64,000 bases of DNA, taken from NCBI GenBank assembly GCA_046563655.1, contig CM102285.1, forward strand, positions 4,650,001 to 4,714,000, read 5' to 3'. Below the pieces are notes generated by a model. That model was not told the DNA's origin. It did not search any database and worked only from the letters and a program-made list of their open reading frames with translations. The position numbers and the translations under genes were made by a program. Of this stretch, positions 34,001-62,728 are shown in pieces (the stretch's first letter is position 1; every line of letters starts with the position of its first letter). The DNA comes from Yuukianura sp. NJ FZ-2021 (Eukaryota).

Positions 34001-34351
34001 GTTTCCCGCTACATAATACTACGCGACTCGGCTATACCACGACATATTGTAAACATTGCGACAAGTAGGAGTAGGGGTTGTTTTGTTTCCAAAGAATTTG
34101 ATTTTATTGCACTAAAAAAACTACTTTCAACAAAGGTGTTTAGCGTTGAAAATGGAACGTTTTCTCAAATTGTTCTTAAAGATTTCCAAACGCCAATTAG
34201 TTTTAAACGTTCAAAGGGAAGTACTTATTTGGTTTATATTGCTAAGGGCTCGTTACACTTTGAAAAAATTGAAGTAATTGATCTTGTTCCAAAAAAAACC
34301 CACATACCAAACTTCCTGTTCAAAGATATTTTTCAGAAGATGGTAGCATAG
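31039..34351 (+). CDS. NLR-like NACHT NTPase + pentapeptide-repeat protein, 5' part (exon 31039-31065, intron 31066-31171, large exon from 31172)
   Basis: Walker A VLGDSGTGKS, Walker B LILILDGYDE, IVSCRP, winged-helix motif FRFLHMSLFEYF, ASNALTIL, then pentapeptide repeats (ANFRN-SICGN-SDFSG-ANFKN-AKLNQ...); phase-0 intron joins MAASCRHSS to ERTTAEE. Confidence 0.8.
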
Positions 34352-36039
34352 GCATAGTTTTTCCTCTTACAGCAAGAATTCCCGTTTTTGATGTTTGGAA
34401 ATTTCAGAATGAGGCTAATGGTCACAGACGACAAGAAACTTTCGATAGGCGTATTCAGTATAGAAATTTTCGGTGCCCAAAATTTCATACTACGGCGAAG
34501 GCCGAAGTGTTAATAACACCAAACAACTTAGTTGTATATTATGTTTGCGTAATAGATCCTTTGGCTCCCGGGTACCAACATCAGCTAAATGCGTACGATG
34601 CAAAATGCAACAAAATATTTCGACTACACGGTATACCGTACGACAGAATGTCTACAAGAACTAATATTTTGATGTTTCAGGATTTTCAGAAAATTGCTTT
34701 CAAAAATGACAAGGAATTTGCTTGTTATAGCGTTACGGAAACTCCCTACGGTGGTATAGGGTTGGTTCATGACGTCACTTTTACCTGCAGTTTCGAACGT
34801 CCGGAGTTTGCATTTGATCCTAATGAACAACATACGTACGTTTTCTCCAAAATAAATACTTATAATGGTCGTATCGGTGTCTGGAATCTAGAAAACAGTA
34901 CGTACATGTTATATCAAGTCAAAAATCACAAAATTTTCCAACCTAATACAAGTCAATGCACAGTTCTCTTGGAAAATAAAATCATCCAAGGCTGCTGCAG
35001 AAACGGCTATTTTTACATAAACCGTTCAAAAGAATACAGCAAATTTCACCCAGAGAGTCCTGTATATGTTTCATCAAACTCAAAATTAGGTTGGATTGTA
35101 TCTCAGTTTCGTAATGGGGATTTAGTTATTTTAGAATCAAGAAGCTTAGAACAATTATTTTTCTTCTATGGATTTTTACCTGGGCATAAGTTTCAAATTA
35201 CACTTAAATCTCCTCATCAAGTCCGCATTGCGCTTGTTCAAGATTATGCTGGAGAGCTAGTATGGCTGAGTCTAAATGGTGTTTCTCTAGGGCAGTGTTA
35301 TCAGCACGGAAAATTAAAAGAATTCAAAGACTGGAAAGTTGATAAAAGTGACCTTCCAAGTTCTAGTCTCTCGTTGAGTAAAGTTGACATATCCTACTCA
35401 CGATCTATAGACAAGGGGTTTTTGTCACTGTTCAACTTTCATGGTTCGCTAGGTTCTCCATCAGAGAGCCATGAGTACAAACCATTTTGCAATTTATTTC
35501 TACCGGTAATAGAATACCAACATTCCATTCTAATAACATCTGACAACGAACAACCGATTGACTTGAGTAAAAATTGGACAGTGACAGTTATTACTAAAAA
35601 GAGTAAATCAAATATGCCGTGGATTTCCACGGAACCACATGCAGCTCTGATTATTGAAGGAATTTTACATGGGAGGCACTTTGTCATTAGAGCGGAACTG
35701 ACAAACAATAACAAAGTACTACAAATCAAATGTGAATCATATAGAGGGAAATCACAGTACGAAGAAATTGTTAAAAACTATGATGGAAAGCAAATACAGG
35801 TAGATTCTGAAATAGGAATGAAATTGTTGCAAAATATTTGGGTAGATACGTATAACCCACAATGGAAGTACAATTTGCTGTTTCACAATTGTAATAGCTG
35901 GTGTAAAGAAAAACTTCAGGTATTGAACATTGAAGACGAGTTTAAGTCTAAACCATACAGATTATTTGTTGACCTTCCAAAAGATTTTGAGTTGAAGGAA
36001 TTTAAATTTAGTAAATCTACTCACCAGAATGTAAAATGA
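34291..36039 (+). CDS. 3' part of the same gene (-1 frame from the A8 run): degenerate beta-propeller-like region + C-terminal permuted papain-like (PPPDE/LRAT-like) domain
   Basis: Frame is open from 34282 (…YFSEDGSIGIV…) into the listed 510-aa ORF; WD-like fragments (FAFDPNEQ, GRIGVWNLEN); HAALIIEG...YNLLFHNCNSWC. Confidence 0.7.
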   Translation, partial: KKNPHTKLPVQRYFSEDGSIGIVFPLTARIPVFDVWKFQNEANGHRRQETFDRRIQYRNFRCPKFHTTAKAEVLITPNNLVVYYVCVIDPLAPGYQHQLNAYDAKCNKIFRLHGIPYDRMSTRTNILMFQDFQKIAFKNDKEFACYSVTETPYGGIGLVHDVTFTCSFERPEFAFDPNEQHTYVFSKINTYNGRIGVWNLENSTYMLYQVKNHKIFQPNTSQCTVLLENKIIQGCCRNGYFYINRSKEYSKFHPESPVYVSSNSKLGWIVSQFRNGDLVILESRSLEQLFFFYGFLPGHKFQITLKSPHQVRIALVQDYAGELVWLSLNGVSLGQCYQHGKLKEFKDWKVDKSDLPSSSLSLSKVDISYSRSIDKGFLSLFNFHGSLGSPSESHEYKPFCNLFLPVIEYQHSILITSDNEQPIDLSKNWTVTVITKKSKSNMPWISTEPHAALIIEGILHGRHFVIRAELTNNNKVLQIKCESYRGKSQYEEIVKNYDGKQIQVDSEIGMKLLQNIWVDTYNPQWKYNLLFHNCNSWCKEKLQVLNIEDEFKSKPYRLFVDLPKDFELKEFKFSKSTHQNVK

Positions 36040-39440: not shown

Positions 39441-40459
39441 AAAGTGAGGGGAACACACCTCTACTGGCCCTGAGGAGGGGGGGAGGGGTAAGGAACACTC
39501 CCCTACTCCCCCTGGGGGAAGGAGCGAAAAAATGGAGGGAACACTCCCCACAGCCTGCCACAGCCAGGGGCAGCCCCCTATTTCTGAGCCATTATCAGTA
39601 TGCGCGGTTTCCAACCGGTTTATTGTCTTCATTTTTAACCTATTTTTATCTTTTCACTTGCACACACATCATTCCTAATTAGCAGGGCTGCAAAAAATAT
39701 GTTCTTAAATATTAAATATTTTTATATTCCGCCATTTTAAAAAATATAAATATTTTTCTAAATTTCTGGCTGTTTTTGAAAAATAAACAATATTTTGTGT
39801 AAATTTTTAGCCGTTTCAGTTTTTTTCGGACCAAAATTATTTGGTCCGAATATCACCTATATTGGTGATATCTGTCGTCCGCAGTTAACAATTTTTTTCT
39901 TTTTCAACCGATAAAGAAACACCAAAGCCATCCTTGAACAAATTCGATATCCTGCTAACTTTTAACCCAAGAAAGAAAATATAGTTCAGGTTCAAGGTAA
40001 ATAGAATACTTATAGGTAAGGTCCCTTAAAATTGTTTTTTCAAAACCTAGTTGCTATGGGAATTTTTTCACTCCCATTCACGCCATGTACAGTGCTACTA
40101 AACAATTTTATCATTTTAGCCTAAAAACTTTCGCCACTAACGCAAAAGTATAATAAAAAGTTGGATGAACCTGTATTTTCTCTCGGAGTGACGTCACTGC
40201 GAGTGAAATGTAAACAACTCAAGAATCGGTTTTGGTCGCTAGGGCACTTTTGCCGCTAGCTGGTTCAGGTTAGCAATACTCAAAATCCCGGTTGCGCTAA
40301 AGGCATCAGTGACAATTTGTCACTGACAAATTAACAAAGGCCAACTGAATTTATGTGATTTCAAGGTAAAATTTTGTAAATATTGACTGGGTTAGTAAAT
40401 ATTTGCTTAAATAAAGTGCCGTTTTTCAGTAAATATTTCAATAAATGTTTTGGGGGTTT

Positions 40460-40873
40460 TGTAGCACCTCGTGCTACGCAAACTGCCAAAGATGGCCTCA
40501 GACAAACGATCCGAGCACTGCCGGACTCATGCAACAAACTGAGGAACCAAAGAACACCAATGAGACAACACGAAAGGCAACACAAAGACACGAAGACAAA
40601 TAAATATAAAATATATTTATTTGTACAAAAGATACAAAGTCTTCAGCTCATGCTGAGACAAACACCAAACACCGACTGACTAGCACAACTAGTCTCAATA
40701 CTCTCCTGACTCTCCTCTACCACGCTAACTCTCTCAAAACTCGCGCTAAGCGCTAAACCAAATCTCAACTAACGCTAAGACTAAACCATAGCCTAACTAC
40801 ACTAACCTAAGGCCACTCCCTAACCTCAAGGGGCAATTGACCCTAACCTAAAGGGGAAAACCGGGGCACTTCA
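40460..40873 (-). repeat. Gypsy 3' LTR
   Basis: Differs from 50185-50599 by one substitution and one G in a G-run by manual comparison; preceded on the minus strand by the PPT (40874-40886). Confidence 0.95.
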
Positions 40874-40993
40874 CCTTCCTCCTTCTAAAGATCGGGTTCC
40901 GGGGCATTCCTCGGGACACGATCTCCATCCTCCTCTGCTTCTCGGGCTGCACGTTCCGCTTCTCGTCGCAAGCGCTCCTCCTCAGCACGAATA

Positions 40994-42998
40994 CCGTATT
41001 TTCCCTAATAGTACACCATACCTAAATAGTACACCAGGTCCCTAATAGTACACCACCCCCAGAAGTCGAAAAATTAATTAGTACACCGTCCCAAATAGTA
41101 CACCAGGTCTCTAATAGTACACCAGGGTCTTTGGGAATGTAGCATTAGGAGTATACCACCCGGAGCAGTTAGTTGAGCTAATATTATAGCTCTTCCTTTG
41201 TTGTGTTTGGCCCCACGTTACTTCTCTCCAAATTGTTTTACTTAAAATTCGTATTCTTACTTTAAAATGTCTCCCAACAAAAAAAGATCATTTGACCTGG
41301 AGTTCAAATTGAAAGTGGTGAAATTGGCCAAGGATAAATCAATTGCGGCAGCTGCTAAAGAATACAACATTGATCGACAGAGTATTCGGACATGGATTAG
41401 AAAGGAAAATGATTTAGGTGAGTAATTTATTGTGAATAAAATATTTTTTCCTAATTATTACATTCATACTGAAACAGTATTTTGTTTACAGTGTCAAACG
41501 TGAAATCATCCAAGATCAAACACAAAAGGTTGATCGGCGCTGGACGGAAACGATTGATACCTGAGTTGGATGATTCACTCTTTTACTGGATTATGGAACA
41601 ACGAAACAAATCGTTAAGAGTCTCACGGCGTTCGATTCAAGAGCAGGCGAAGAGGATTTTCCCAACATTGGATAACGGAAACAGAACGAAGTTCGTCGCA
41701 AGTTTGGGCTGGCTAGATCGTTTTCTCAAAAGACACTCATTATCATTAAGACGGAGGACTACAGTTGGACAAAAGGATCCGGATCAATTGTTTTCAAAAG
41801 TTGCTGATGTGGCTATATTTATAAGTAAAGTCGTACGCCAGCGTAAGATCGAACCGGCACAAATTATTGCAATGGACGAAACCAGTTTGTGGTTCGACAT
41901 GCTGAGCAACACAACAATTGCTCCGACTGGATCTAAAACTGTTCAACTAAAGTCGACTGGAAATGAGAAGGCACACGCTACGCTTGTTCTAGCGGCCAAA
42001 GGTGACGGAACAAAGCTGAAACCATTCATCGTTTTCAAACAGGGAATTCGAGAGGTAGCGAAGCTTCAATCTGAAACTGGGATCGTAATTCGTAGCAGTT
42101 CAAATGGTTGGATGAACGATGATCTGACCTGTGAGTGGTTGAAAACTGTGTACACACGATTTTCCTTCAAACATCGTTTGTTAGCTTGGGATTCTTACAA
42201 ATGTCACATCAGTCAATCTACTAAAAATGAACTCATTGGATACAACACCACAATGGCAGTCATTCCTGGGGGATGTACAAAGTATATTCAAGCTCCAGAT
42301 TTGTGCTGGAATAAACCCTTCAAGGCTCGTATTACCGAACTTTACGATTCTTGGCTAGCAGGAGATTCCGACAAGGAATATACAAAAGGAGGAGGGAATT
42401 TGAAGGTATTTCATAACTAATAATTTGTACGGTCGTATGTTTCTTTTAAATATAATTTGTATAAATTCTTAATTTTTAAGGCTCCATCCAAGAAATTGAT
42501 GACTCAATGGGTGAAGATTGCCTGGGATTCATTGTCACCTGAACTAATCAAAAACTCATTCAAGTCTTGCGCCCTTACTGTCGCTAGTGACGGATCTGAA
42601 GATCACAAGATCCACTGCATGAAGGAAGGCCAGCCATGTTTTCCAGCATTAGCAATTCTGCAAGCCAACAGACTGACTGAACAACTTCAAGAACTGCAGA
42701 TTTGTGAAGATCTTGAAGAAGACAACAACAACGAAGTGTTAATTGACTCAAGCGGAGAAGAAGAATACGAGCTGGACACTGTGGATACGGATTCTGAAAA
42801 CGAAGTGGAGTAGTTTTTAGTAATTTAGAAATTATTTTCTCCTGATTCCTAAACGTTTTAGCTAAGAATAAAATCCTCATTCTTAAAAAATTAATTAGTA
42901 CACCGTCTCTAATAATACACCAGGTCCCTAATAGTACACCACCCCCAGAAGTCGAAAACAAAATTAGTACACCAGGTGTACTATTTGGGAAAATACGG
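40994..42998 (+). mobile_element. Intact pogo-superfamily DNA transposon (DD35D, Passer/POGK-like) inserted in Gypsy ORF3
   Basis: TIRs CCGTATTTTCCC(T/A)AATAGTACACC; TA TSD at 40992-40993 and 42999-43000; multiple subterminal AATAGTACACC copies. Confidence 0.95.
41267..42813 (+). CDS. pogo transposase, 3 exons (41267-41417, 41492-42405, 42481-42813), 465 aa
   Basis: Brinker-like HTH (RSFDLEFKLKVV), CENP-B HTH (FVASLGWLDRFLKRH), catalytic MDET...AWDSY...QAPD with 35 residues between the second and third Asp; introns splice in frame. Confidence 0.92.
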
Positions 42999-44910
42999 TA
43001 CGAAGATTTCGGCGTCGATTCATATTGAGACGCCGGCGGCGGTGACGTCTTCTCGCTTCTGGTTCTGGCAGATCCCGGAATCGGCAGAACATCACGTCAG
43101 TATGCCGCTCGCTACCACAATGGGGACAGTTCCGGCGATTTCGCCGATCTCTTCGTTCGGCTGCAGCTACTTCTTCTTGGGGCTCCTCCTCCATCGCATC
43201 CATCACTTCTTGGGGCCCTTCCAGTGGAACTTGTGGTTCGTAAACCACATTCGCAATTTCTTCTTGTGGTAATCCTACCACCTCACGCAAATCATCTTCG
43301 GAAACGGTGACGATCAGCATCTCACCGTCATCACTGTCACTAAATTCCTGGACGTTGCACTCCACGTCCACTTCCGGCTCAGCAACTTCCTCCTCCAATG
43401 GTTCGTCAGAAACGTCTGACAGATCGGAAACATCCGACAAACCATCGATATCTACAAGCACTGGAGCACAAATATTTACATTGTGGGAAGTTGTTTTACC
43501 AACTTCCGCCTCCATTCTAGCAATATCCTCTCTGGTGACTGGCGTATCCCAGTCGAATGCAGACAAATCCAGAGTCACTTTTTGCACTGCAGCAGGAACA
43601 TTAGCACTTTTGGAAGTTGATTGAGCAACTTCCTGTTCCATTCTTTGTACATCTTCTTTAGTGATTGGTGTATCCCAATCAAACACCGATAAATCCAGAG
43701 TCACTTTTTGCACTGTAGAAGTTGTAGCACCAACTTCTGTGACTCCGCCCACCACTTTTGTAGACACAAAAACTTCAAGTAGCATCTCCAAATGACCAAG
43801 TGACAAAACATTTTTGCCAATCATTCTTTCAATGTCCAACCTATTTTTAGGCCCTTCCTTGACCAATTGAGCACAAGTAACATCAGCAATGACTTCTTTT
43901 GGTTGAACGTCCATCTCCCTGGCAACCATGTCTCTCCAGCCGACAACTTGCTCCATCACACTTACACTTAAAGTGGGCATGTCCACTTTAGCCAGAATCT
44001 CACGGGCACTTGGATTAGGCTTAAACTGGTACACTTTTAAGCACAGCTTATTACACAACTTGACAACCTCATTCCACTTAACACTTTCACTTTTGAAGTC
44101 ATGACGTTGCTTCATGACTTCAAACACACGTAATAACAAATGTGTGTCACTCCTGGCATACTGGATCATGTCTGGATGCATGTTCTGAATAGGACGAATC
44201 CTAAAATCAGCAAGTTGACAATCCTTGCTCACTGTCACACCAGGCAAGTAGTCACGAATCACTTTGTCCAGTCCACGTCCTTGAGTCCCTCCGAAGACAG
44301 AATCCACAATTTGAGTGTCGATTACACCCACGAAGAAGATTTGGTAGTGGAGCTGGAACATGAGTATGTCATTAACACTTCCATGCAGAATCTTGATGTA
44401 GTTGCCATTGGAGAAGATTTCCCTCAGCATTTGCATCTGGATTGGCACTACGAATGGATCAATGATGTAATCCGATTCCTTGGTCGAAATCTGCAAAGAA
44501 CAAACATAACGATCACGATAGCCTTTGTCATGACTAAACTCCATGTCCACACCGATAACTCGTTCGGCTCTCAACAAATCAAGCATAACCATGAACTTAG
44601 CCTCCGTATCAATAATACGAATAGGAACAGATGATCTCTGGTCAACAATTTTTTCCTTAGACGGCTCCATGACTGCATCCCACAACCGAAACACTTTCAC
44701 TAATGACGTGTGAGGATGATCTTTGTACGGGAATTCATCCCATGAATTACGTTGAGCCGCTTCAGATAAAAACATGTCCTTACGTTCCTGTGGACTCTTA
44801 TCCGCGGCACCATACTTTAGTTCGCACTCACGTCTCTTCTTCCAGTAATCTTGAGTTTTCTTTTTCTTTGCACTAACTGGCACCACATCACTAACGACGG
44901 ATGATGGCAT
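42964..44910 (-). CDS. Gypsy ORF3: Rrp6/EXOSC10-like DEDDy exoribonuclease + HRDC + acidic region + CCHC knuckle (native C-terminus displaced to 40991-40885 by pogo)
   Basis: ExoI VIGVDMEF, CSLQIST, DYIIDP, ExoII KILHGSVND, IDTQ, QLADFRIRP, ExoIII YARSDTH; HRDC WRDMVAREMD; CPHCGSERHTDVMFC; first ATG at 44910. Confidence 0.9.
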   Translation of the reverse strand: MPSSVVSDVVPVSAKKKKTQDYWKKRRECELKYGAADKSPQERKDMFLSEAAQRNSWDEFPYKDHPHTSLVKVFRLWDAVMEPSKEKIVDQRSSVPIRIIDTEAKFMVMLDLLRAERVIGVDMEFSHDKGYRDRYVCSLQISTKESDYIIDPFVVPIQMQMLREIFSNGNYIKILHGSVNDILMFQLHYQIFFVGVIDTQIVDSVFGGTQGRGLDKVIRDYLPGVTVSKDCQLADFRIRPIQNMHPDMIQYARSDTHLLLRVFEVMKQRHDFKSESVKWNEVVKLCNKLCLKVYQFKPNPSAREILAKVDMPTLSVSVMEQVVGWRDMVAREMDVQPKEVIADVTCAQLVKEGPKNRLDIERMIGKNVLSLGHLEMLLEVFVSTKVVGGVTEVGATTSTVQKVTLDLSVFDWDTPITKEDVQRMEQEVAQSTSKSANVPAAVQKVTLDLSAFDWDTPVTREDIARMEAEVGKTTSHNVNICAPVLVDIDGLSDVSDLSDVSDEPLEEEVAEPEVDVECNVQEFSDSDDGEMLIVTVSEDDLREVVGLPQEEIANVVYEPQVPLEGPQEVMDAMEEEPQEEVAAAERRDRRNRRNCPHCGSERHTDVMFCRFRDLPEPEARRRHRRRRLNMNRRRNLRTVFSQIVHLVY

Positions 44911-44970
44911 GATGGAAGTCAGGAAATGACTTCCAAAACACTGAAAAAGAACAACTGAACAGAGCACGTT

Positions 44971-47900
44971 TTAGTTTCTGTATCCAGCGAGCGTGCGATA
45001 GTTGAGCCGAACTTTTTTCCTCAAAGTTCTTCCTCCAGAGTTCGCTTCCTCCTCCGAGTCCGACCAATCCTCTGACTTAGTGGGAATTTTCGGAACCGCA
45101 AACTGCGACGTGCGAACAGTATAAGGCTTCAACTCCGACACATGACGCTTTCCAAAATTAGTTTTCTCCGGCAATGTCACAAGTTTGAAGGTCACTGGGG
45201 TTAACACTTCACTAATTTGGTATGGACCAATGTAACGAGGGTCTAATTTTTTTGCAATGCCTTTCTTCTTGTCTGACAACGAATGATTTTTAATAAGCAC
45301 TAAATCACCAACTTGAAAGTTCTCTTCTTGATGTTTAGAGTCATAATGCTTGATATTATGCTCATGTGCTTCTTCCATGTTCTTCCTCACGAACTGAATA
45401 ATTTCTTCTAATTGAGCAGGCAGAAGTCCTAACTTCCGGACTTCCCTGTCACCATCACTTTGTAAGTTCCTATCAAGGGGCAGCGGAATCTCACGACCTA
45501 AATTCAGTAACGCAGGAGTCACTTTAGTAGTCGAATGTACAGAAGTTCTAAGAGCCAACGCGAACTTCTGGAGATGCTGGTCCCATGATCTATGATTCTT
45601 GTCGACATAAGCCTGGAGCATAGGCTTAAGGTTCCGATTGACCCTTTCGACTGTGTTAGCTTGCGCATGGTACGGACTAACAGGAACATGGTTGATCTTC
45701 CAGTCCTTAGCCATTTTAATCATCACTTTGGAGAGAAATTGGCTTCCATTGTCCGACACAACTGTTTTTGGCGTACCATAACGACAAAAAATTTCATCCA
45801 CTAACACTTGCACAACTTTTTTCGATTTGGCTTTCCGCATCGGGAATAACTCCACCCACTTGGATAAATCGTCTTCCACGACGAACAAATACTCATTTTG
45901 ATTTGAAGATCTTGGCAGTGGTCCTAGAAAATCGATGTAGATTTTCTCAAACACTTTAGTTGGAGGCACCACTGCTTGAAGTAAACCAAAGGGCTTGTAG
46001 TTGCAAGACTTGACCGCTTGACAAACTGGACACGATTTTACATAATCACTGATGTCCTTATTCATGTTTCTCCAGAAAAATCTTCTCTTGATTTTTACTT
46101 TTGTGGCTTTGATGCCAAGATGCGCTGCTTCTGGCACATCATGTAGTAACTTCATTATTTCGGGTATCATGACCCTTGGTACCACTGGCACCTGAATGAG
46201 CTCACTTGTACGAGCTGAGGAACTGCTGAACTCTTTTTCGTCAACGTCCTCTAGAGTGATGTCGGAAGATTGAGGCCTCGTTTTCGCACACCGCCCCTCG
46301 ATAATGTCTCCGCAGAAACCATTATCGGAATAGAAGTCAAATCCCATGACTTCTCTGCCTAGTACGCCATTCTTTAGGACGTAACTTTTAACACTTTTAC
46401 CACTTTCGATGTCACTGATCACTTTCACTAAATCAGGATCTCTTCGTTGTTCGTCTTTCATCTTCTGGATCGTAGGAGTATCAAACGACAGTAACGCCAC
46501 GGCCGTTGGCGAGTTCATGTACGCCGGGGAGTCATCTTCAAAATCGAGATCCGCTTCATCGACAGGAACTGGAGCACGTGAAAGCGCGTCCGCCTCCACA
46601 TTATCCTTCCCGGAGCGATGCTTGATCTCGACACCCCATGACTTGATCTCCGTATCCCACAAAGCCAATTTTGCTTTCCGCTCCTTCATCTTGTTGAGGA
46701 ATGATAAGGCTTTGTTGTCAGTAATAATTGTGAACTTCTGACCTTCAATGTATTCTCTGAGCTTCCGGTAGGCCCAAATAATCGCGAACAACTCTTTTTC
46801 GTAAATGTGGTACCGAATTTCTGATTTTCGGAGTGTTTTACTAATAAACATCACTGGTCTCTCCACACCATTAATCACTTGAGTTAAGGCCGCACCTAAC
46901 CCATAATTCGACGCATCACACTTTAACAAAATCGGATGGTCGTAGTCAACTGCATGTAACATCACATCGTTGCACATTGACTCTTTTAGTGACTGGAACG
47001 ACTTCTCCTGTTCTTCTCCCCAAATCCATGGTTGATTTTTTCGTAGAAGTCGGTACAGTGGCTCTGCCTTTGCAGCAAAATGTTCAATAAACGGAGCATA
47101 CCACTGAGTCATTCCATGGAAACTTTGCACTTCTTTGACGTTCTTCGGAGTAGGAAAATCCACTATGGCACTCACTTTCTTAGGACACTTTTGTAGACCA
47201 TGTTCTGTCAAACGATGGCCCAACACATCAACCTCTCTCCTACAACACTGCAACTTTTGAGGACTAATGGTGAGTCCTGCCATCTTCAACCTACTCAGCA
47301 CTTTTTCTAAATGCACTAAATGTTCATCCAGAGTTTTACTGAACAAAATGATATCGTCCATGTAGCACTTTGCAAACTTGGAGAATCCTTGGATGACTTT
47401 CCGCATCAACTGCTGACACGTCTTTGGACTATTCTTTAATCCGAATGGCATCACTAAAAACTCGTAGTGGCCATCTTGAGTCACGAACGCTGACTTTTCT
47501 ACACTGTCCGGATGCAACTTGACTTGCCAATAACCTTTCGCAAGATCAATCACTGTGTACCAATAACCAGCAGGAATTGTGTGTAAAATGGAATGAGCAC
47601 TTTCCATTGGCGCAGCATTCGTCTTCGTTTGCTGATTCAGCAACGTATAGTCCACACAAAGTCTCTTACTGCCGTCTTTCTTTGGTACCACCACAACTGG
47701 AGCTGCATACGGTGACCTTGAAGGTCTGATTAGACCTTCCTTCAGCATTTCTTGAATTTGATCATTAATGATCTTTTGCATTTCTGGTGACCTTCTGTAA
47801 GGGTTCCTTGCCGGGGGACACCCTTCATCTTCTATGATATGATGAGTCAGGTCCGTCCTTCCCAACTTCCCATCACTCCGGACGACCGTTGGAAATTTCT

Positions 47901-48417
47901 CTAGGACACGCTGAACTCTCACTTTCACTTCACTATCTTGATTGTGACTTTCTGGTAAAGCCACTGAAAACAACGCAGTACCGGTTGTTTCTGTAGTGGA
48001 AGTCAATTTAAATTTCTGACTTCCATTGTCACCAAACCAAAACTCCTTACTTTTCAATCTAATTACAATGTCATTCTGAAAACAAAAATCAGAACCTAAC
48101 ACACACTTTACTGGCAAACCTTCCGCCACATAGAACTTTGACTTAAAAGTTCGACCACCAATTTTTATATACACAAAACAGAAGCCAATGAGACGCAGCT
48201 TCTGACTATTCATCATTGTTGTAGACTTATTTTTTAATGGAACTACAACTGATTTTAATTTTTCACATAACTGTACATCAATGAGTGACTGCGAACATCC
48301 CGTGTCGAAAATAGCCAAAAATTTCGAATCTTCATTCGCCACAGTCACAAAAGGAATTAAATCGTCCGAAACTTGAACTAAGGTAGGGTGAATGATGGAC
48401 GACTTCTCATTCACCAC
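44971..48417 (-). CDS. pol: Gypsy Pol polyprotein (protease, RT, RNase H, integrase), probably via -1 frameshift from gag
   Basis: FDTGC, RLCVDY, MPFGLKNSP, YMDD, CDASNYGLGA, integrase HHCC (H..AAHLG..CPVC), IDFLGP, SDNG, ERVN and GPY; no stops; -1 frame relative to gag with G-TTA-AAC just before the gag stop. Confidence 0.97.
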   Translation of the reverse strand: MVNEKSSIIHPTLVQVSDDLIPFVTVANEDSKFLAIFDTGCSQSLIDVQLCEKLKSVVVPLKNKSTTMMNSQKLRLIGFCFVYIKIGGRTFKSKFYVAEGLPVKCVLGSDFCFQNDIVIRLKSKEFWFGDNGSQKFKLTSTTETTGTALFSVALPESHNQDSEVKVRVQRVLEKFPTVVRSDGKLGRTDLTHHIIEDEGCPPARNPYRRSPEMQKIINDQIQEMLKEGLIRPSRSPYAAPVVVVPKKDGSKRLCVDYTLLNQQTKTNAAPMESAHSILHTIPAGYWYTVIDLAKGYWQVKLHPDSVEKSAFVTQDGHYEFLVMPFGLKNSPKTCQQLMRKVIQGFSKFAKCYMDDIILFSKTLDEHLVHLEKVLSRLKMAGLTISPQKLQCCRREVDVLGHRLTEHGLQKCPKKVSAIVDFPTPKNVKEVQSFHGMTQWYAPFIEHFAAKAEPLYRLLRKNQPWIWGEEQEKSFQSLKESMCNDVMLHAVDYDHPILLKCDASNYGLGAALTQVINGVERPVMFISKTLRKSEIRYHIYEKELFAIIWAYRKLREYIEGQKFTIITDNKALSFLNKMKERKAKLALWDTEIKSWGVEIKHRSGKDNVEADALSRAPVPVDEADLDFEDDSPAYMNSPTAVALLSFDTPTIQKMKDEQRRDPDLVKVISDIESGKSVKSYVLKNGVLGREVMGFDFYSDNGFCGDIIEGRCAKTRPQSSDITLEDVDEKEFSSSSARTSELIQVPVVPRVMIPEIMKLLHDVPEAAHLGIKATKVKIKRRFFWRNMNKDISDYVKSCPVCQAVKSCNYKPFGLLQAVVPPTKVFEKIYIDFLGPLPRSSNQNEYLFVVEDDLSKWVELFPMRKAKSKKVVQVLVDEIFCRYGTPKTVVSDNGSQFLSKVMIKMAKDWKINHVPVSPYHAQANTVERVNRNLKPMLQAYVDKNHRSWDQHLQKFALALRTSVHSTTKVTPALLNLGREIPLPLDRNLQSDGDREVRKLGLLPAQLEEIIQFVRKNMEEAHEHNIKHYDSKHQEENFQVGDLVLIKNHSLSDKKKGIAKKLDPRYIGPYQISEVLTPVTFKLVTLPEKTNFGKRHVSELKPYTVRTSQFAVPKIPTKSEDWSDSEEEANSGGRTLRKKVRLNYRTLAGYRN

Positions 48418-49943
48418 TGAGCGTTTAACTTCTCATTAGAAGTCGACGCTTCATGCTTTTCAGGTGGTTCCTTCTTCTTCTTTGGAACTGGAGGTCCTTG
48501 TTGAACCTCCTCTTGAAATGACCCCAAGGCCAAACCAACACCTGATGGACACTGAAACTTACGATGCCCATAACCATTACACTTGAAACACTGAACATCA
48601 CTTAAATCTTGCCTAGAGGTCTGACCTTGACCTCTGCCTTGACCACCACCTCGGTCGTTGTCATTAGAAGAACCACGATTACCACGGTAACCGCCCTTCC
48701 CACGTGCAGATGATTCACTTTGAGGCTGCACTGAATTCTTGTCATAATTTGATTTCGAACTTTGACCTTGTGGCTGATCATTAGTTGAAGTCGAGGAATG
48801 TCCACTGTTCGGACTTCCATTACTTCCATTAGACGGGGATTGATCACTGGAATAATTCTTGTAGCCATTTCCCTTGCCTTTCCAGTGTCCACGGAAGCCA
48901 TTATTCTTGGCTTCCTTCCCACGAAACCAATTATTCCCATTGGAAGTTCCAGCAGAACTTCCAGCATTTGAATTTGTGGAATTATCATCTTTCTTGACTG
49001 ACTCTGACGTTGAGTCGACCTTGACAATTGGAGGTAATCCGAATTTGTTTTTTGTGATTCTATCTTCTGCTGTCAAATTAGCATGTGCAATTCGACATGC
49101 ATCAAAAAGTGATTCCACTGTGTCGAACTGTTGAGTTCCTAGGGCTGTGCGAATCCTCGGATTCAAACCTAATTTAGCACGTAACACTGCATCAGCCACT
49201 GACTCATGTGGATAAATTAATCTGGAGCACCGAACCACATCATACAAATAAAATTCAACAGACTCGTTGAACTGTTGTCTTCTTGTGTGCAGAAGCCTCG
49301 TTCGTTCTGCCACGTCCATCCAATTATCATATCTGCTGATAAAAGCATCTTTGAATGCATCCCAGTCCGTCACTGTCACTAGGATGTGGTCGAGCCATGG
49401 TTGAGATTCTACAGGCAAGACCGTCTTCACAAGATAAAGAAACTGCCTTTGCTCATGTCCTTGAGCTGTGAAGTAACGCTCTACTTCACTAAGGTAGCCT
49501 GCCGCTGACATCTTCTTTGGATCAAAACTCGGCACAGGCAATTTAGATGATAATGATGTGAACTTGATACTCTTCAATGCTGTTATCAATGCTTGGGTCT
49601 GACCAACTGGATCTGCCTCCGCAGGGGCTGGAGTCACCGCAGCGACTCCACCGGTCACCCGCTGAACTAATCTCTGCTCCACGCCGCGCACGGCATGGGC
49701 CACGGCCTCGGCCACTAATCTGTCCACTTCCTCCTTGGTGTATGTTGCCATGGTTACTGATGAACCTGGAGCACTAACGATGATTTTTGGGGATGTACTT
49801 GGAGTCGGAATCTTAGAATCTTGACTTCGGAGAAACGGTCCTTCCGAATCTGATGTTGGACTATGCTCTGGTAGCTTAAATGTCACTGTAGGATCAATTT
49901 CCAATTTTTTCAATTCTTTACTTACTGGTTTTTTGTCTGACAT
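48411..49943 (-). CDS. gag: Gypsy Gag (capsid + CCHC nucleocapsid knuckle)
   Basis: WDAFKDAFISRY, RRQQFNESVEFY, RGG-rich region and CFKCNGYGHRKFQC. Confidence 0.93.
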   Translation of the reverse strand: MSDKKPVSKELKKLEIDPTVTFKLPEHSPTSDSEGPFLRSQDSKIPTPSTSPKIIVSAPGSSVTMATYTKEEVDRLVAEAVAHAVRGVEQRLVQRVTGGVAAVTPAPAEADPVGQTQALITALKSIKFTSLSSKLPVPSFDPKKMSAAGYLSEVERYFTAQGHEQRQFLYLVKTVLPVESQPWLDHILVTVTDWDAFKDAFISRYDNWMDVAERTRLLHTRRQQFNESVEFYLYDVVRCSRLIYPHESVADAVLRAKLGLNPRIRTALGTQQFDTVESLFDACRIAHANLTAEDRITKNKFGLPPIVKVDSTSESVKKDDNSTNSNAGSSAGTSNGNNWFRGKEAKNNGFRGHWKGKGNGYKNYSSDQSPSNGSNGSPNSGHSSTSTNDQPQGQSSKSNYDKNSVQPQSESSARGKGGYRGNRGSSNDNDRGGGQGRGQGQTSRQDLSDVQCFKCNGYGHRKFQCPSGVGLALGSFQEEVQQGPPVPKKKKEPPEKHEASTSNEKLNAQW

Positions 49944-50184
49944 GGAGTGGATCCAGTGGAAGTTGTTTCGGCAACTTCCTCCTTCTATGTACAGAATTTA
50001 CAGATGATCCACTTCTGAATTATGGCCAATTCCCTCTGACCAAGGGTAACGTCCACGCACGAACAATTACATGACGTCTTGATTCCACTTGACACAGAAT
50101 AAAAGTTTTTAAACACTCACCATGTGTTGTTACACCATTGTGACCTTTGACCTCAGCAGTAACACTCACAAAACGGTCGCCATG

Positions 50185-50599
50185 TGTAGCACCTCGTGCT
50201 ACGTAAACTGCCAAAGATGGCCTCAGACAAACGATCCGAGCACTGCCGGACTCATGCAACAAACTGAGGAACCAAAGAACACCAATGAGACAACACGAAA
50301 GGCAACACAAAGACACGAAGACAAATAAATATAAAATATATTTATTTGTACAAAAGATACAAAGTCTTCAGCTCATGCTGAGACAAACACCAAACACCGA
50401 CTGACTAGCACAACTAGTCTCAATACTCTCCTGACTCTCCTCTACCACGCTAACTCTCTCAAAACTCGCGCTAAGCGCTAAACCAAATCTCAACTAACGC
50501 TAAGACTAAACCATAGCCTAACTACACTAACCTAAGGCCACTCCCTAACCTCAAGGGGCAATTGACCCTAACCTAAAGGGGGAAAACCGGGGCACTTCA
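50185..50599 (-). repeat. Gypsy 5' LTR
   Basis: Direct repeat of 40460-40873; followed on the minus strand by CA-TGGCGACCGT (PBS). Confidence 0.95.
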
Positions 50600-51190
50600 G
50601 TTTTTAGTAAATATTGTTTGCAGCCCTGCTAATTAGTTAGTTGCTTAATGGGATTCTTTTAATTATGATTTCTAGTGTTAAAGATTATGTTTCAATTATG
50701 TAAAATAAAATTGGTTTTGTAATAAAAATTTGGCAGGAACATATTTTGACATTTGATTTACCTATTATTCCTACCTTAAGCATTTCGCGTCCTACAAGAC
50801 AACTTTGGCATAAATCAATGAATGAAAAACGATTAAAATTATATTCTAAATGCTTTTTAATAATTATTACCATACTTAATTCTTAGATCTCTTAACCTGC
50901 TACTGGCAGGTGTAAGTTATACTAATGTTTCGCTTCAATAAATTACAACTTATAAGTAAATTAAATACCTATTTTCAGTTCAAATGAACTACGCCCTTTG
51001 CTCTGTAACGGCAATGTTTAGCTTATTTATGATGATTACTTATTTGGCAAAACTTTCATCAACAGACTCAGGAATAGTTCATTACATAGTGAACAAATGA
51101 CATGATAGACTACAATGAAATGGTAAACTAACTCACTTTGTCACCTAACAATTAAAAATTAACTCCTTTAAATCTGGTGTAACCTGTATT

Positions 51191-52818: not shown

Positions 52819-54225
52819 TTACGCAAAGATTTCTTTGTAAACACAGTTAACTGTAAACCATTTATTTACTCCAGGCACCAATTTCCCTTGATTTTCTCGG
52901 GAAATCAATTTTACCCGTACGTTTTCTTGCTTGGTGCACCTAGAGAATGCTACGTATAATTGACCGTGGCTGAACACAGGAAATGGTAAGTAAATACCAA
53001 CAGAATCCAGTGACTGTCCTTGGGCTTTGTTAATGCTCATAACGAAAGCCAAGGCCACTGGAAACTGGCGTCTTCGAATTTCAACCGAAAAGTCACTTTC
53101 GGAGGAGATCAAATCAATTCTAGGTAGAAGGACTTGGTGTCCTTCGTGTCTTCCCTGTAGGATCTCTGCACAAATAACATTTGGCTTTAGGGACTTAATG
53201 ATAAGTCTTGTGCCGTTACAAAGGCCACGCCTTTTATTCAAATTACGCAGAAGCATAGTTATGGCTCCAACTTTGAGCTTTAGCTCGTGCAGTGGAAACC
53301 CAGATGGTGTCAGGGTGTTGATGAATTCGACAGGGTAGTCCTCTACCGAACCTTCGCCGTCATCATCGACGGAATCTGTACTGAAGTAAGCGACTTCTTG
53401 TCCTTCACTTCGGTGTAATATTTGTTCATTTAGTTGATGAACATGTTCGTTCTTTGGCGTTAGTATCGCTTTTTTAGCCAAACCTTTTACATTTTCTTCA
53501 TCCAGTGAAATCTTTTCGCCAAAAATGGAAGAAATTATATCATTTTCTTCGATACAATTCCTTGGGAGTTCAATTACGTCTTCTCCTAATTCGTATTCAT
53601 TGGACAATTTTCCATCCCCGAGATCAAGGAGCCATTTATTGTATTCAATTTCTGCGGGGCCAGTACGCATATTTTCAAGAAGCTTAAGAGGTCTGAAATA
53701 CCTCCAAACTTTGCTTCTTTTAAGCGAAGCTTGAACTATCAGTGCACGTTTTCCATGCTTGACAATTGGGAGTGTTTGCCTGAAATCACCTCCAATTAGG
53801 AACAACTTATTCCCGAAAGGTTTATTTACTCCCATTATTTCTCGGAATAAACGGTCAACGGCGTCCATGTTATAGCATGGGGTCCTTGTGACCTCGTCCC
53901 AAATAATAATAGAGGCTTCACGTAGAAGCTTCGCTTCTTTAGACGTTGGCTTAGTTTTGGACGTTGTTGTTTCATTTGTATGAATCCCAAGTCCAAATCT
54001 AGAGTGGTACGTCGTACCAACTTCCAGGAGTGTGGCTGCCAAACCAGTCGATGCAACTAAGCAAGTTTTCAAACCTCTACCTTGAAAGGTTTTATCAAGA
54101 GTATTATACAGGAAGGTTTTACCACTTCCTCCAGGGCCGTCAATAAAAAAACATTTGCTGTAAGTTTCAGCATTCTCTGCAGCAAAAATTGCATCATAGG
54201 CTTTCTTCTGCTCGACGTTTAACAT
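52819..54225 (-). CDS. Helitron PIF1-family helicase domain
   Basis: FIDGPGGSGKT, IIWDE, GGDFRQTLP, LLRNLN..GLCNGTRL, RRQFPV, INKAQGQS and FSHGQLYVAFSR. Confidence 0.93.
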   Translation of the reverse strand: MLNVEQKKAYDAIFAAENAETYSKCFFIDGPGGSGKTFLYNTLDKTFQGRGLKTCLVASTGLAATLLEVGTTYHSRFGLGIHTNETTTSKTKPTSKEAKLLREASIIIWDEVTRTPCYNMDAVDRLFREIMGVNKPFGNKLFLIGGDFRQTLPIVKHGKRALIVQASLKRSKVWRYFRPLKLLENMRTGPAEIEYNKWLLDLGDGKLSNEYELGEDVIELPRNCIEENDIISSIFGEKISLDEENVKGLAKKAILTPKNEHVHQLNEQILHRSEGQEVAYFSTDSVDDDGEGSVEDYPVEFINTLTPSGFPLHELKLKVGAITMLLRNLNKRRGLCNGTRLIIKSLKPNVICAEILQGRHEGHQVLLPRIDLISSESDFSVEIRRRQFPVALAFVMSINKAQGQSLDSVGIYLPFPVFSHGQLYVAFSRCTKQENVRVKLISRENQGKLVPGVNKWFTVNCVYKEIFA

Positions 54226-54239
54226 TTCTGTTTCTGATC

Positions 54240-55202
54240 TAAAGTAGAGTCATTCACAATAGACATTGAAACTTGATGAGGGACTCGGCCTTCTTGCCGT
54301 GCTAGTTCCTCTTCTTGAATTTCGAATTCTCGCATCATTTTAAATGCCTGCGCAAATGGATTAATAGTGCGCATGAGAATATCTAGTTAATTCATTAGGG
54401 TTGGAATACAACCCTTATTTGAATTTTGTCCTGTCCGATTCATTAACGCCTCCTCTGTATCAATAATGTACAGTTGGGCGTACTCGGGCTGCTCCCCGTC
54501 ACGTGGGTGCAGTGGTCCAGTTAAATGATAAATTTGTCCGTGAATTCGAAAGCAGTATGGTCCATAGCCAGGAGGTGGTGCGATTTGTGCACCCAAAGAA
54601 GCAAAGGCTAAGGCACTATTGTATGACCTTATATTCTCCGTAAAATTGTTTGAATTCTCATGCTCACCCTTCATCAGCCTCATAATAAATTCATTAGAGC
54701 GTAGGTTAGGCAATACAATTCTACCATTCTCACAGCATGACGAAAACTGCTTGGTAGTAGTTGACCTCTCTCCCTCAAAATTTTTTGAGTTACAATGCCC
54801 GCATCGTGCACTCATCCTGCCTACAGAATACTCTTGTACAATGACCTCATTCGGCAGGTTCAAATTTACAGTGCATCCTGTATGTATAGTCGCCCTTTGC
54901 AGAAAATTGGAATTTTGCAAATTTGAGCGACTTGTTGTTATCGCCCTGTGGCGAACAGTATCAGCTTCACGCCGCTCTGCTGTTTCTTGTTCTGATTGGT
55001 TAGCTCTAAACGTACGTAAGCGCAAAATGTCAGATTCACGACGCAAAGCAGTCTCACTTTCTGATAGGTTAGCTCTTGCCACCCTTTTACGCGCGGCATC
55101 ACGCTATCGACGTTGAGCTGCCTCTTGAGAATCCTGGGCTCGGGCGAGTCTTTTCCGAATGGCGCTAGGAGTCTGGGATAGTTCCCGCTTCCTTCCAGAC
55201 AT
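54240..55202 (-). pseudogene. Helitron RepHel N-terminal region with in-frame stops
   Basis: Charged repeats, CGHC...CCENG zinc motif, NIRSYNSALAFASLGA, GPYCFRIHGQIYH, YAQLYIID and INPFAQAF; stops at ~55105 and 54387-54389. Confidence 0.85.
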
Positions 55203-61673: not shown

Positions 61674-62059
61674 TAAGTATGAATTTGCAGTCGCTGTTTT
61701 TTTTTAAATGAAATTCCCAAATAAATTCCTACTTTCCTGAACTATTTTATAATTTCGCAAACGAGTGGGTACAAGGGTACAGTAACGCCACAATTTTTTT
61801 TAATCTTGGAAATTTTTGGTTGGTAATTCATTACCGAAAAGTAAGATGAAAATCCTCCTTTCAAAATAAAATTTCTTTTACGTATTGTGAAATAAAATGC
61901 TTTTGCGCCTTTTCATTATCACTGAAGTCGAAAAATAAAACCCTTTTTCAACCTTTAAAAATTTCCTAATTTAAAAAATGTAGTTATGCCTTTGGATTTT
62001 TTGATTAAGTGTATTTGAATTTGTTGATTTGCAGAGTTAAACTGATGCGACAAACAAGA

Positions 62060-62728
62060 ATGGCTGACACGGCCATCGCTACACCCGACGCACCAGCGTC
62101 ATCTGACGCTCCAAAGAAAGTTACGAAGAAGGCTCCAGCAACTAAGAAAACCGCAGTTGCTAAAACCCCCAAAATCAAAGCTCTAAAAGTCACGAAGAAG
62201 GCGACGACTCATCCCAAGATTTCCATCATGGTGGATGACGCCATCAAAGGCCTGGGTGAGAGAGGCGGATCGTCCCTTAAGGCCATCAAGAAGTACATTC
62301 TGACCAAGTACAAAGTGGATGTCGAGAAGCTTGCCCCCTTCATTCGCAGATACCTCAAATCTGGGGTAAAGAGTGGATCCATTGTACAGGCCAAAGGGAA
62401 GGGAGCCAATGGGTCATTCAAGCTTCCACACAAAGGGGGCGCTGCAAAGGCATCTTCCGCAGCTCCAGCTAAACCAAAGAAGAACATTGCAGCCAAGAAG
62501 GCCAAGACTTCACCAAAGGTTAAGGTCACTGGAGCCAAGGCCAAGAAGGAGAGCATTGTAGGAACTGCTGCAAAGAAAGCGTTGCCACCGAAACCGAAAA
62601 AGATGACGACCACGAAGAAAGTGGCGGTTAAGAAGGTCGCCAAAGCAAAGTCGGCGGTTAAGGCTCCCAATCCAAAGCAAGTGGCTACAAAGAAGCCAGC
62701 TCCCAGAAAGGCCCCAAGCAGGAAGTAA
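62060..62728 (+). CDS. H1: Linker histone H1
   Basis: Globular domain [31 protein letters not shown]...[14 protein letters not shown]-rich tails; alternative in-frame ATG at 62045. Confidence 0.95.

Follow-up and report, generated by a model that had tools for sequence, protein, structure and literature searches.

What does an exonuclease of the kind that serves RNA surveillance do in the env position of a retrotransposon, and does it belong to the element or was it swept up by a single copy? The question is raised by the third open reading frame (ORF3) of an element on the minus strand at 40460-50599 of the window, the whole 64,000-nucleotide stretch of DNA that was analysed (Table 1). This element shows the anatomy of a Ty3/Gypsy retrotransposon, with a pair of LTRs, a target-site duplication, a primer-binding site, a polypurine tract and open gag and pol genes. 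The LTRs were 99.5% identical over 415 columns, differing by one substitution and one indel, and a GTTT(T) duplication lies on either side of the element, the joint sharing five letters. Pol matched the Pfam families RVT_1 (177-336), RT_RNaseH (399-524), Integrase_H2C2 (679-737), rve (754-850) and SH3_Tf2-1 which, together with a protease seen as an FDTG motif, give the Ty3/Gypsy order protease-RT-RNase H-integrase. The pol frame is -1 relative to gag, with an overlap of 22 nt, and the zf-CCHC match of Gag (E 4.8e-4, 20.5 bits) was marginally below the Pfam cut-off of 20.8. We are highly confident that this is a young Ty3/Gypsy retrotransposon, and that its third gene comes from a family of Rrp6-like exonucleases (3'-5') that is carried by transposons.

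Table 1. Features of the element and of the transposon nested in it (window positions).
Feature	Position	Strand	Remarks
5' LTR	50185..50599	-	415 nt, TG..CA; direct repeat of 40460-40873
Primer-binding-site-like stretch	50169..50182	-	begins TGG, 2 nt past the LTR (read from sequence)
Two GTGAGT splice-donor-like hexamers	50164-50169, 50115-50120	-	within the 241-nt leader
gag	48411..49943	-	510 aa, with CCHC knuckle
pol	44971..48432	-	1153 aa, open stop to stop: protease, RT, RNase H, integrase, SH3_Tf2-1
Pyrimidine tract and CAG, 3' splice-site-like	44941..44955	-	between pol TAA and ORF3 ATG, roughly 30 nt upstream of the latter
ORF3 as it stands	42964..44910 (44910..42964)	-	648 aa; env position, between pol and 3' LTR
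Rrp6-type catalytic core, aa 36-396	43723..44805	-	N-terminal wrap, DEDDy EXO (aa 98-268 by Pfam), HRDC
Tandem duplication, 126 nt	43458..43709	-	75% identity; within acidic linker; doubles ..FDWDTP.. motif
C-terminal CCHC-type zinc knuckle, aa 595-609	43084..43128	-	C-x2-C-x4-H-x5-C, then basic tail
pogo/Tc5-like DNA transposon	40994..42998	+	2005 bp; 24-nt inverted ends; TA duplication 40992-40993 / 42999-43000
Rest of ORF3's original tail	40885..40989	-	34 open codons and TAG, phase continuing the cut codon
Polypurine tract	40874..40886	-	adjoins 3' LTR; overlaps TAG of ORF3's original frame
3' LTR	40460..40873	-	414 nt, TG..CA

The earlier note on this DNA had read ORF3 as an Rrp6-type exonuclease with an HRDC domain, lodged in the env slot of a young Gypsy element, and this reading was borne out by Pfam, by the PDB search, by the predicted fold and by the similarity of the LTRs. 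ORF3 matched the exonuclease family PF01612 (E 1.1e-27, Pfam), its HRDC match remained under the cut-off (E 0.0016, 18.8 bits against 23.8), and a sequence search of the PDB retrieved yeast Rrp6 (2.4e-27) and human EXOSC10 (5.3e-22). The structural model reached a pLDDT of about 87-98 over residues 10-390 and was of low confidence after aa 396. Residues 36-396 of the model were superposed on residues 179-588 of human EXOSC10 with a Z score of 33.0 (rmsd 4.8, 349 residues aligned) and on residues 127-516 of yeast Rrp6 with a Z of 31; the score for RNase D was 23.8, and the ten best Foldseek matches were all Rrp6/EXOSC10. The model thus supports an HRDC fold despite the sub-threshold Pfam score. 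ORF3 shares with Rrp6/EXOSC10 the N-terminal wrap and the EXO and HRDC core (Z 31-33 over 341-349 residues, 23-25% identity) and the five catalytic residues, its DEDDy set being complete (D122, E124, D181, Y251 and D255).

Unlike Rrp6/EXOSC10, ORF3 is intronless, lies within LTRs, falls in a separate clade, has a knuckle and a basic tail added and lacks PMC2NT, the domain that ties cellular Rrp6 to Rrp47. That PMC2NT is not recognizable, as the earlier note had it, was confirmed by Pfam, which gave no match to it in ORF3, and the structural alignment only begins at EXOSC10 residue 179. Beside the core, ORF3 comprises a basic helix at the N-terminus, an acidic linker, a CCHC zinc knuckle similar to that of the Gag nucleocapsid and a basic tail; what had been taken for a free NLS-like basic patch is part of the N-terminal helix, which is conserved in the family and well modelled. 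Among about 130 cellular matches listed, nearly all of the best ones stop before aa 450, the exceptions being P0017, which reaches aa 504, and P0073, which reaches aa 534, with nothing cellular beyond about 534. Since cellular matches are nearly absent after about aa 445, there is no sign of an exosome-binding C-terminus in ORF3, although short linear motifs could escape detection. Neither a signal peptide nor a transmembrane segment, as found in retroviral or errantiviral env, was detected in ORF3, and it contains no hydrophobic 19-residue stretch (the highest Kyte-Doolittle mean was 1.32), so that ORF3 is not env-like; the model points to a soluble nuclease fold.

A phylogenetic analysis carried out with IQ-TREE on 59 rows grouped ORF3 with 20 other representatives, and a single branch (SH-aLRT 98) splits this 21-row clade from cellular Rrp6; the tree was unrooted, had SH-aLRT as its only support and left out about 88 of 147 rows. 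With FastTree, on the 147 rows, ORF3 fell within a starred set of 24 rows (SH-like 96), of which 22 have the short form. A zinc knuckle of the same kind was present in 16 of the 21 family rows vs. 2 of 134 other rows, PMC2NT was found in none of the 20 family rows scanned vs. 12 of 23 other rows in the same scan, and the Pfam cut-off for HRDC was passed by 8 of 20 family rows. The named family members come from the springtails Orchesella dallaii and Allacma fusca. In the O. dallaii protein P0005, residues 3-137 matched the C-terminus of the window's integrase (33% identity, 7e-22) and residues 165-488 matched ORF3 (29% identity, 7e-43); one gene model fuses a Gypsy integrase C-terminus to the exonuclease, although faulty gene prediction may have produced this join. 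The linkage of the exonuclease to Gypsy pol was seen at these two places only, the window and the P0005 gene model. Two metagenome contigs (L001 and L002) carry an ORF3 homologue; by tblastn both lacked a pol match, and Pfam scans of the L001 ORFs of at least 70 aa and of six L002 ORFs found neither RT nor integrase.

These data bear on the possibility that ORF3 is a host gene copy caught by chance, useless to the element and decaying. In its favour, the ORF3 of this copy is interrupted (see below), and neutrality was not rejected for the comparable ORF3s of bdelloid rotifers, whose authors saw neither a clear deviation from neutrality nor a clear relation to copy number (Rodriguez, Kenefick & Arkhipova 2017, PMC5408684). 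Against it, the clade is deep and separate, its architecture and catalytic residues are conserved, and a springtail shows the same order of pol and exonuclease at 29-33% identity. The same idea is opposed by an excess of synonymous variants between copies. In four of four runs (two studies, two organism labels), contigs at least 85% alike spanned the stretch in each of its 30 bins, and their more than 1000 variant places imply several diverged copies. Of the 22 ORF3 variants listed, 11 were synonymous, against an expected share of 0.26 (binomial P = 0.015), a count drawn from the 40 variant places listed out of 1026. We regard a useless passenger, already disfavoured, as highly improbable. Nor is a recent capture from this host supported, the clade being deep and present in other genomes; and ORF3 is no isolated acquisition, since it groups with 20 other representatives. 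What did hold is that ORF3 is kept as an accessory gene of the lineage, as indicated by the 21-row clade, the retention of its catalytic residues and the integrase-exonuclease join of P0005.

The retention of the catalytic residues also speaks to whether nuclease activity is under selection at all. Among 23 aligned rows, D122, D181, Y251 and D255 were each kept in 22 and E124 in 21, and all five residues were present in 20 of the 23 rows. As these rows share no more than about 21-33% identity with ORF3, such retention would be difficult to account for if catalysis were not under selection. The deviating rows are P0014, without four of the five residues, P0003, without one, and P0035, with a D to E change. 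It could still be proposed that ORF3 serves to bind RNA or in a chaperone-like capacity, or that it draws off cofactors of the host exosome as a decoy. Indeed, PMC5408684 describes Maelstrom and EXD1 as DEDD derivatives that are no longer active but still bind RNA, and P0014 still has the knuckle and an open frame. A decoy of the exosome would have nothing obvious to offer, because the Rrp47-binding domain PMC2NT is absent, and in view of the conserved catalytic set we find a non-catalytic role very unlikely.

How ORF3 is expressed can be approached from the signals around it. GTGAGT occurs 32 times over the 64 kb on both strands, not above chance overall, and two of these matches lie in the leader. 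Read as donors, these hexamers could pair with the pyrimidine-CAG stretch upstream of ORF3 as a putative acceptor. Such donor-like and acceptor-like signals, arranged as in env-type gypsy, suggest a spliced subgenomic mRNA. In this respect, as in the presence of a third ORF that separates pol from the 3' LTR, the element resembles Drosophila gypsy, from which it differs in that the ORF3 product, without signal peptide or transmembrane segment, is predicted to be a soluble nuclease. ORF3 would accordingly be translated from its own ATG, probably off a spliced subgenomic mRNA in which a leader GTGAGT is spliced to the pyrimidine-CAG site roughly 30 nt upstream of that ATG. Alternatively, a Pol-ORF3 fusion might arise by read-through of the single TAA, a reading that concerns expression only and would dispense with an mRNA of ORF3's own: both genes are in one frame, separated by a single stop and 19 codons, and P0005 is an unbroken integrase-exonuclease protein. 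This protein may be a prediction artefact, though, and the 3' splice-site-like tract lies between the pol stop and the ORF3 ATG. Furthermore, in 23 of 24 relatives aligned with ORF3 the conserved N-terminal motif starts about 10-20 residues or less from the first Met, so that the relatives look like separate ORFs, and a TAA with A after it is not known to be leaky. We consider read-through unlikely.

As for the function of the protein, our best guess, which we hold tentatively, is that ORF3, made from the spliced mRNA, is a stand-alone RNase independent of the exosome that works on 3' ends in the service of the element's replication. The knuckle and the basic tail would bring the protein to RNA, and the enzyme would trim 3' ends of the genomic RNA, of the primer or of single-stranded cDNA. 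A possible but rather unlikely alternative is that the nuclease acts in counter-defence, as a silencing suppressor degrading antisense transcripts, precursors of piRNA or siRNA, or small RNAs that target the element. The enzyme class would suit this role, since Nibbler, which trims small RNAs (Z 21), and the piRNA factor Exd1 (Z 18) are among the folds that rank behind Rrp6 and RNase D, and the knuckle and tail would be expected to bind RNA. On the other hand, the nearest fold is the Rrp6 core, not Nibbler, and no feature of the sequence indicates a small-RNA substrate; the Rrp6 core acts on the 3' ends of long RNA. Certain RNA viruses do use exonucleases to dampen sensing by the host, according to 10.1101/2021.02.01.429129, which counts for counter-defence; and the presence of the same ORF type in unrelated retroelement classes of bdelloids (PMC5408684) favours it too, but fits a function in replication equally well. 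It is improbable, in our opinion, that a widespread Gypsy lineage of soil arthropods, undescribed in the literature searched, uses a knuckle-guided host surveillance-nuclease core against RNA silencing. If this were true, its role would be the destruction of antisense or piRNA-precursor transcripts, and it would be the first case of a transposon encoding a nuclease that suppresses the piRNA/siRNA pathway.

Precedents for a mobile-element exonuclease lend themselves to the same comparison. The earlier note knew of no described Gypsy family with such a cargo, a statement that has to be corrected, as ORF3s encoding DEDDy exonucleases were published in 2017 for the LTR retrotransposons Juno and Vesta of bdelloid rotifers, and also for Athena/Terminon retroelements (PMC5408684). 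According to that report, Juno and Vesta, which are Gypsy-like LTR elements, likewise have an enzymatic ORF3 of the DEDDy type where env would lie, and it lacks transmembrane and coiled-coil parts; the transposon copies are nearer to one another than to RNase D, mut-7, WRN or Rrp6 of cellular origin; Vesta2 and Vesta5 were noted to have a Cys/His zinc motif, reminiscent of the ORF3 knuckle; and the function was unknown to the authors, who suggested 3'-end processing. The bdelloid ORF was detected by HHpred only and has the motif DEED, whereas ORF3 was recognized by Pfam and has DEDD-Y intact. Here the whole Rrp6 core was modelled with HRDC and is followed by a C-terminal CCHC knuckle and a basic tail, and HRDC is never mentioned in PMC5408684. 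The named relatives are springtails for ORF3 and rotifers for Juno and Vesta, the two groups being compared here by their described features. The type of cargo was therefore already known from rotifers, and the springtail-related Rrp6-like form with HRDC and knuckle looks like a new variant. In Dada DNA transposons, too, a mobile element carries a DEDDy exonuclease whose catalytic residues are intact and for which a role in 3'-end processing is assumed; unlike in ORF3, it is embedded in the DDE transposase of a DNA transposon, and HRDC is not reported (Kojima & Jurka 2013, PMC3706591).

The 2.1 kb that separate ORF3 from the 3' LTR are not empty; they are filled by a second element inserted into the C-terminal tail of ORF3, which the earlier note had overlooked, as it had the zinc knuckle with its basic tail and the wider family of ORF3. 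Its inverted repeats, TA duplication and transposase domains (HTH_Tnp_Tc5 and DDE_1, in a broken ORF) are all present, and it is a member of the pogo/Tc5 group of Tc1/mariner. Codons 1-636 of ORF3 (44910..43003) are native, codon 637 is made up partly of the target-site TA and partly of the transposon end, which also supplies the later codons and the stop and in this way accounts for the last 12 codons of the 648-aa frame. Because the transposon sits inside ORF3, the ORF3 of this copy is cut in its tail, after the nuclease, HRDC and knuckle; the phase of the tail beyond the insert was deduced from the sequence at the borders of the insertion. The pogo-like transposon struck this copy later, severing the last 35 codons of ORF3 and sparing the nuclease, HRDC and knuckle. 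An insert-free form was found in one contig (run X1), which joins 40991 to 42999.

The interval 40460-50599 is a Ty3/Gypsy element on the minus strand, whose pol encodes an FDTG protease motif together with RVT_1, RNase H, Integrase_H2C2, rve and SH3_Tf2-1 domains. The earlier note had described a young element with near-identical LTRs, an intact target site duplication and open gag and pol, and this description was confirmed throughout, both frames being open. Because the identity of the LTRs is so high, the element probably inserted recently; at the usual invertebrate rates one substitution in 414 nt would place the insertion at most a few hundred thousand years ago, a figure that is extrapolated and not measured. 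Among the four sequencing runs whose contigs were aligned to the window (X1-X4), a joint from 40455 to 50600 that fits an unoccupied site was present in two contigs of X2, one of X3 and one of X4, with five letters shared; as its shorter side has 28 letters, below the tool's caution line of 30, and its left flank is repetitive, this joint hints only weakly, if at all, at insertion polymorphism.

Coordinates of the Gypsy element, its genes and the transposon nested within it (window positions unless stated)
Feature	Position	Strand	Description
LTRs	40460-40873 and 50185-50599	-	99.5% identity over 415 columns; differences are one substitution and one single-base indel
LTR termini and flanks			TG start, CA end; GTTT(T) on either side
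PBS-like stretch	2 bases past the 5' LTR	-	TGG-initiated; read in sequence
gag	49943..48411	-	510 aa; CCHC knuckle
pol	48432..44971	-	1153 codons, open stop to stop; -1 frame, 22-nt overlap with gag
ORF3	44910..42964	-	648 aa; starts 60 nt past the pol stop, same frame as pol
Zinc knuckle	ORF3 residues 595-609	-	C-x2-C-x4-H-x5-C; basic tail after it
Polypurine tract	adjoining the 3' LTR	-	13 nt; read in sequence
Pogo/Tc5-like DNA transposon	40994-42998	+	24-nt inverted ends, TA duplication, broken HTH_Tnp_Tc5 and DDE_1 frame

Enzymes other than protease, reverse transcriptase, RNase H and integrase are rare cargo in retrotransposons. ORF3, the third gene of the element, which lies in the env slot, had been read as an exonuclease with an HRDC domain, both expected to be visible by profile. 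The exonuclease was borne out by a DNA_pol_A_exo1 match (1.1e-27, Pfam), whereas the HRDC match stayed under the Pfam cut-off (0.0016) and it was the structural model that supported this domain. The closest solved proteins by sequence were yeast Rrp6 (2.4e-27), Trypanosoma Rrp6 and human EXOSC10 (5.3e-22), with E. coli RNase D reaching only 8e-8. In an AlphaFold2 model built from a 67-row alignment, residues 10-390 had a pLDDT of about 87-98, and the best 10 Foldseek matches to this model were all Rrp6/EXOSC10 (10/10). Structural comparison aligned residues 36-396 to human EXOSC10 179-588 (Z 33.0, rmsd 4.8, 349 aligned) and to yeast Rrp6 127-516 (Z 31), scores being lower for RNase D (Z 23.8), Nibbler (21) and WRN (19). 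Together, the Pfam, sequence and fold matches imply that ORF3, as modelled, contains a complete Rrp6 catalytic core, the N-terminal wrap and the HRDC included. PMC2NT, the domain through which Rrp6 is held to Rrp47, had no match in the Pfam scan of ORF3, in agreement with the earlier reading.

Beyond residue 396 most of the model has low confidence; residues 397-594 are acidic (D+E 25%), and almost no similarity to cellular Rrp6 was found past about aa 445, with two stretches extending to aa 504 and 534. A tandem duplication in this part of the protein (window 43458-43709, minus strand; ORF3 aa 401-484) doubles a ..FDWDTP.. motif, and similar acidic-Trp-acidic motifs were found past the HRDC, using a loose pattern, in 10 of the 21 rows of the family formed by ORF3 and its 20 relatives. 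These motifs are presumably similar to the W-acidic motifs recognised by kinesin light chain. No stretch of ORF3 was sufficiently hydrophobic for a membrane anchor.

The earlier note, whose observation was otherwise sound and whose interpretation stood in part, missed that a pogo/Tc5-like transposon occupies the 2.1 kb separating ORF3 from the 3' LTR, and that its insertion point is inside ORF3. The transposon end contributes the stop of the 648-aa frame and the 12 codons before it; past the insertion, the original frame runs on in the correct phase for 34 more codons, to a TAG overlapping the polypurine tract. An X1 contig without the transposon joins 40991 to 42999 (shorter side 40 letters), and a joint from 40926 to 43010 occurs in X1 and X3 on a contig of greater divergence; insert-free copies thus exist as DNA. 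The ORF3 of the window copy has lost only its extreme tail, and its nuclease, HRDC and knuckle are intact. The nested transposon is itself a member of a very abundant family. The summed contig depth of its end regions, which is not taken as a copy number, is far above that of the interior, and 70-712 internal bases are passed over at many joints, a pattern that fits MITE-like deletion derivatives. Each end region also holds several direct copies of a ~20-nt subrepeat.

Judged from the sequence comparisons, ORF3 belongs to a family and is not a one-off. An exhaustive HMMER search with ORF3 returned 4413 proteins at E <= 0.001, the top matches sharing its layout, namely a conserved region starting no more than about 10-20 residues from the first Met, the EXO domain from about residue 85 and no PMC2NT; cellular Rrp6 proteins bearing PMC2NT ranked below these forms. 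In an IQ-TREE analysis of 59 rows (the 21 family rows, the matches P0016 and P0028, and the first 36 others, omitting P0153, P0023, P0035 and all further cellular rows), the family formed one side of a branch with an SH-aLRT of 98. FastTree recovered the same core group from 147 rows (SH-like 96), with P0016 and P0028 falling outside. A C-terminal knuckle was present in 16 of the 21 family rows, the five rows lacking it being all short or cut, and in only 2 of 134 other rows, one of which sits in a family cluster. The named members are springtail proteins (Orchesella dallaii, Allacma fusca), the others coming from metagenome or run assemblies. Among the matches listed by a word-indexed protein search (run with ORF3 in a near search, with ORF3 in a longer search on region 20-420, and with the profile of the family) there was one fungal Rrp6. 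The ESM Atlas held no ORF3 entry, and when queried with P0005, a family member from Orchesella, it gave general Rrp6 and RNase D clusters only.

The DEDDy catalytic residues are conserved over this deep family, and this conservation is the stronger argument for selection on ORF3. In the alignment of ORF3 with its relatives (23 rows, P0016 and P0028 excluded), D122 was kept in 22 rows, E124 in 21, and D181, Y251 and D255 in 22 each; the exceptions were P0014, which lacks four of these residues, P0003, which lacks one, and P0035, with a D to E change. The tool listed 40 of 1026 variant places among the copies, 22 of them in ORF3, and 11 of these 22 were synonymous, against an expected share of 0.26 at the observed transition bias (binomial P = 0.015); in this small, tool-chosen sample the count is a hint of purifying selection, and nothing more. 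Internal deletions occur in sibling copies, as 186 or 119 bases in the HRDC region of ORF3 (window 43833-44020) are skipped by some contigs.

Two observations speak for a link of the exonuclease to Gypsy sequences beyond the window copy. Residues 3-137 of Orchesella P0005 match the C-terminus of the window integrase (33% identity, 7e-22) and its residues 165-488 match ORF3 (29%, 7e-43), an integrase-exonuclease order like that of the window. In each of the four runs, contigs at least 85% alike span gag, pol and ORF3 in every bin, with more than 1000 variant places, X1-X3 representing one sample, possibly the window's own source, and X4 another study and organism label. A second Orchesella protein, P0154 (1386 aa), was considered as a pol fusion and rejected, its exonuclease being N-terminal and its pol matches having E values of 0.11 or worse.

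A scan of metagenome contigs with the family member P0007 found two loci, in contigs L001 and L002; no loci were found in viral contigs scanned with ORF3, P0003, P0010 and P0082, or in genome contigs scanned with P0002. The two contigs (L001 9519-10640; L002 6441-7547) hold P0007 and an 80% copy of it, both without the zinc-knuckle tail. They are collinear over ~8 kb at about 77-87% identity, the frame of the L002 copy is broken, and in both the region upstream of the family member holds an ORF with a C2H2 finger. Against a link to Gypsy, a tblastn search for pol in either contig gave no match, and no RT or integrase Pfam domains were found in the ORFs scanned, which comprised all those of at least 70 aa in L001 and six in L002. 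These loci could be another kind of nuclease-carrying mobile element, or a domesticated and duplicated gene.

Such cargo has a described precedent, of which the earlier note knew none. DEDDy-type exonuclease ORF3s were published for the bdelloid LTR elements Juno and Vesta and for Athena/Terminon retroelements by Rodriguez, Kenefick and Arkhipova in 2017 (PMC5408684); they were found by HHpred, have the motif DEED and are nearer to one another than to cellular enzymes, and their function is not established there. The same account is repeated in the later texts PMC6431247 and PMC6338049. Dada DNA transposons have a DEDDy domain within the transposase (PMC3706591). A pufferfish LTR paper seemed a precedent, but the phrase "ribonuclease domain" had matched it falsely. 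The bdelloid case was built on remote homology; the family of ORF3 combines an unmistakable Rrp6 core with a clear extra RNA-binding module. In the literature searched, whose coverage leaves out most subscription journals and Repbase/Dfam, no Gypsy ORF3 outside bdelloids was described as Rrp6-like, HRDC-bearing and knuckle-tailed. The element type is already known, and the ORF3 family appears to be a new, well-defined variant of it in another animal group.

Regarding the expression of ORF3, the stretch separating the pol stop from the ATG of ORF3 contains a pyrimidine tract ending in CAG, ~30 nt ahead of the ATG. The 241-nt leader contains two GTGAGT hexamers (50164-50169 and 50115-50120), one directly past the PBS-like stretch; across the window this hexamer shows no excess over chance (32 found vs 28 expected), and two in so short a leader are no more than suggestive of splice donors. 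We propose that ORF3 could be expressed through an env-type subgenomic splice from a leader GTGAGT to the pyrimidine-CAG site. An alternative to splicing is that ORF3 is made by read-through of the single TAA after pol.

Under the simplest reading, ORF3 would be a stand-alone 3'-5' RNase reaching RNA via its own binding module: the catalytic needs of Rrp6 are kept, the Rrp47-tying domain is absent, and a basic tail and a knuckle like that of nucleocapsids are added. Such an enzyme might serve the element itself during its cycle, by trimming genomic RNA, the primer or cDNA at the 3' end, a role that we favour tentatively. A counter-defence in which ORF3 acts against antisense or small RNAs can also be envisaged, although we consider it rather unlikely; non-catalytic or neutral readings take up the rest of our expectation. 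The nuclease carried by this young element comes from the pathway that normally disposes of unwanted RNA, and its catalytic residues are conserved throughout a deep family. The ORF3 family represents a clean system to address how a nuclease benefits retroelements, by 3'-end processing in replication or by anti-silencing defence. Furthermore, as a natural minimal Rrp6 without recognisable exosome-binding parts, ORF3 lets the abilities of the core on its own be studied.

Elsewhere in the window, which contains 100 N, an open frame just past the element (52819-54249, minus strand; 476 aa) has PIF1-like helicase and Pif1_2B domains and is possibly part of a Helitron. A long open frame at 31070-36039 (plus strand) has NACHT and pentapeptide-repeat domains, and the 585-aa frame after it had no Pfam match. 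Ordinary host genes are represented by an exon-sized Autophagy_act_C (Atg3/Atg10-like) frame at 12160-12690 (minus strand) and by a linker histone H1 frame at 62009-62728 (plus strand).
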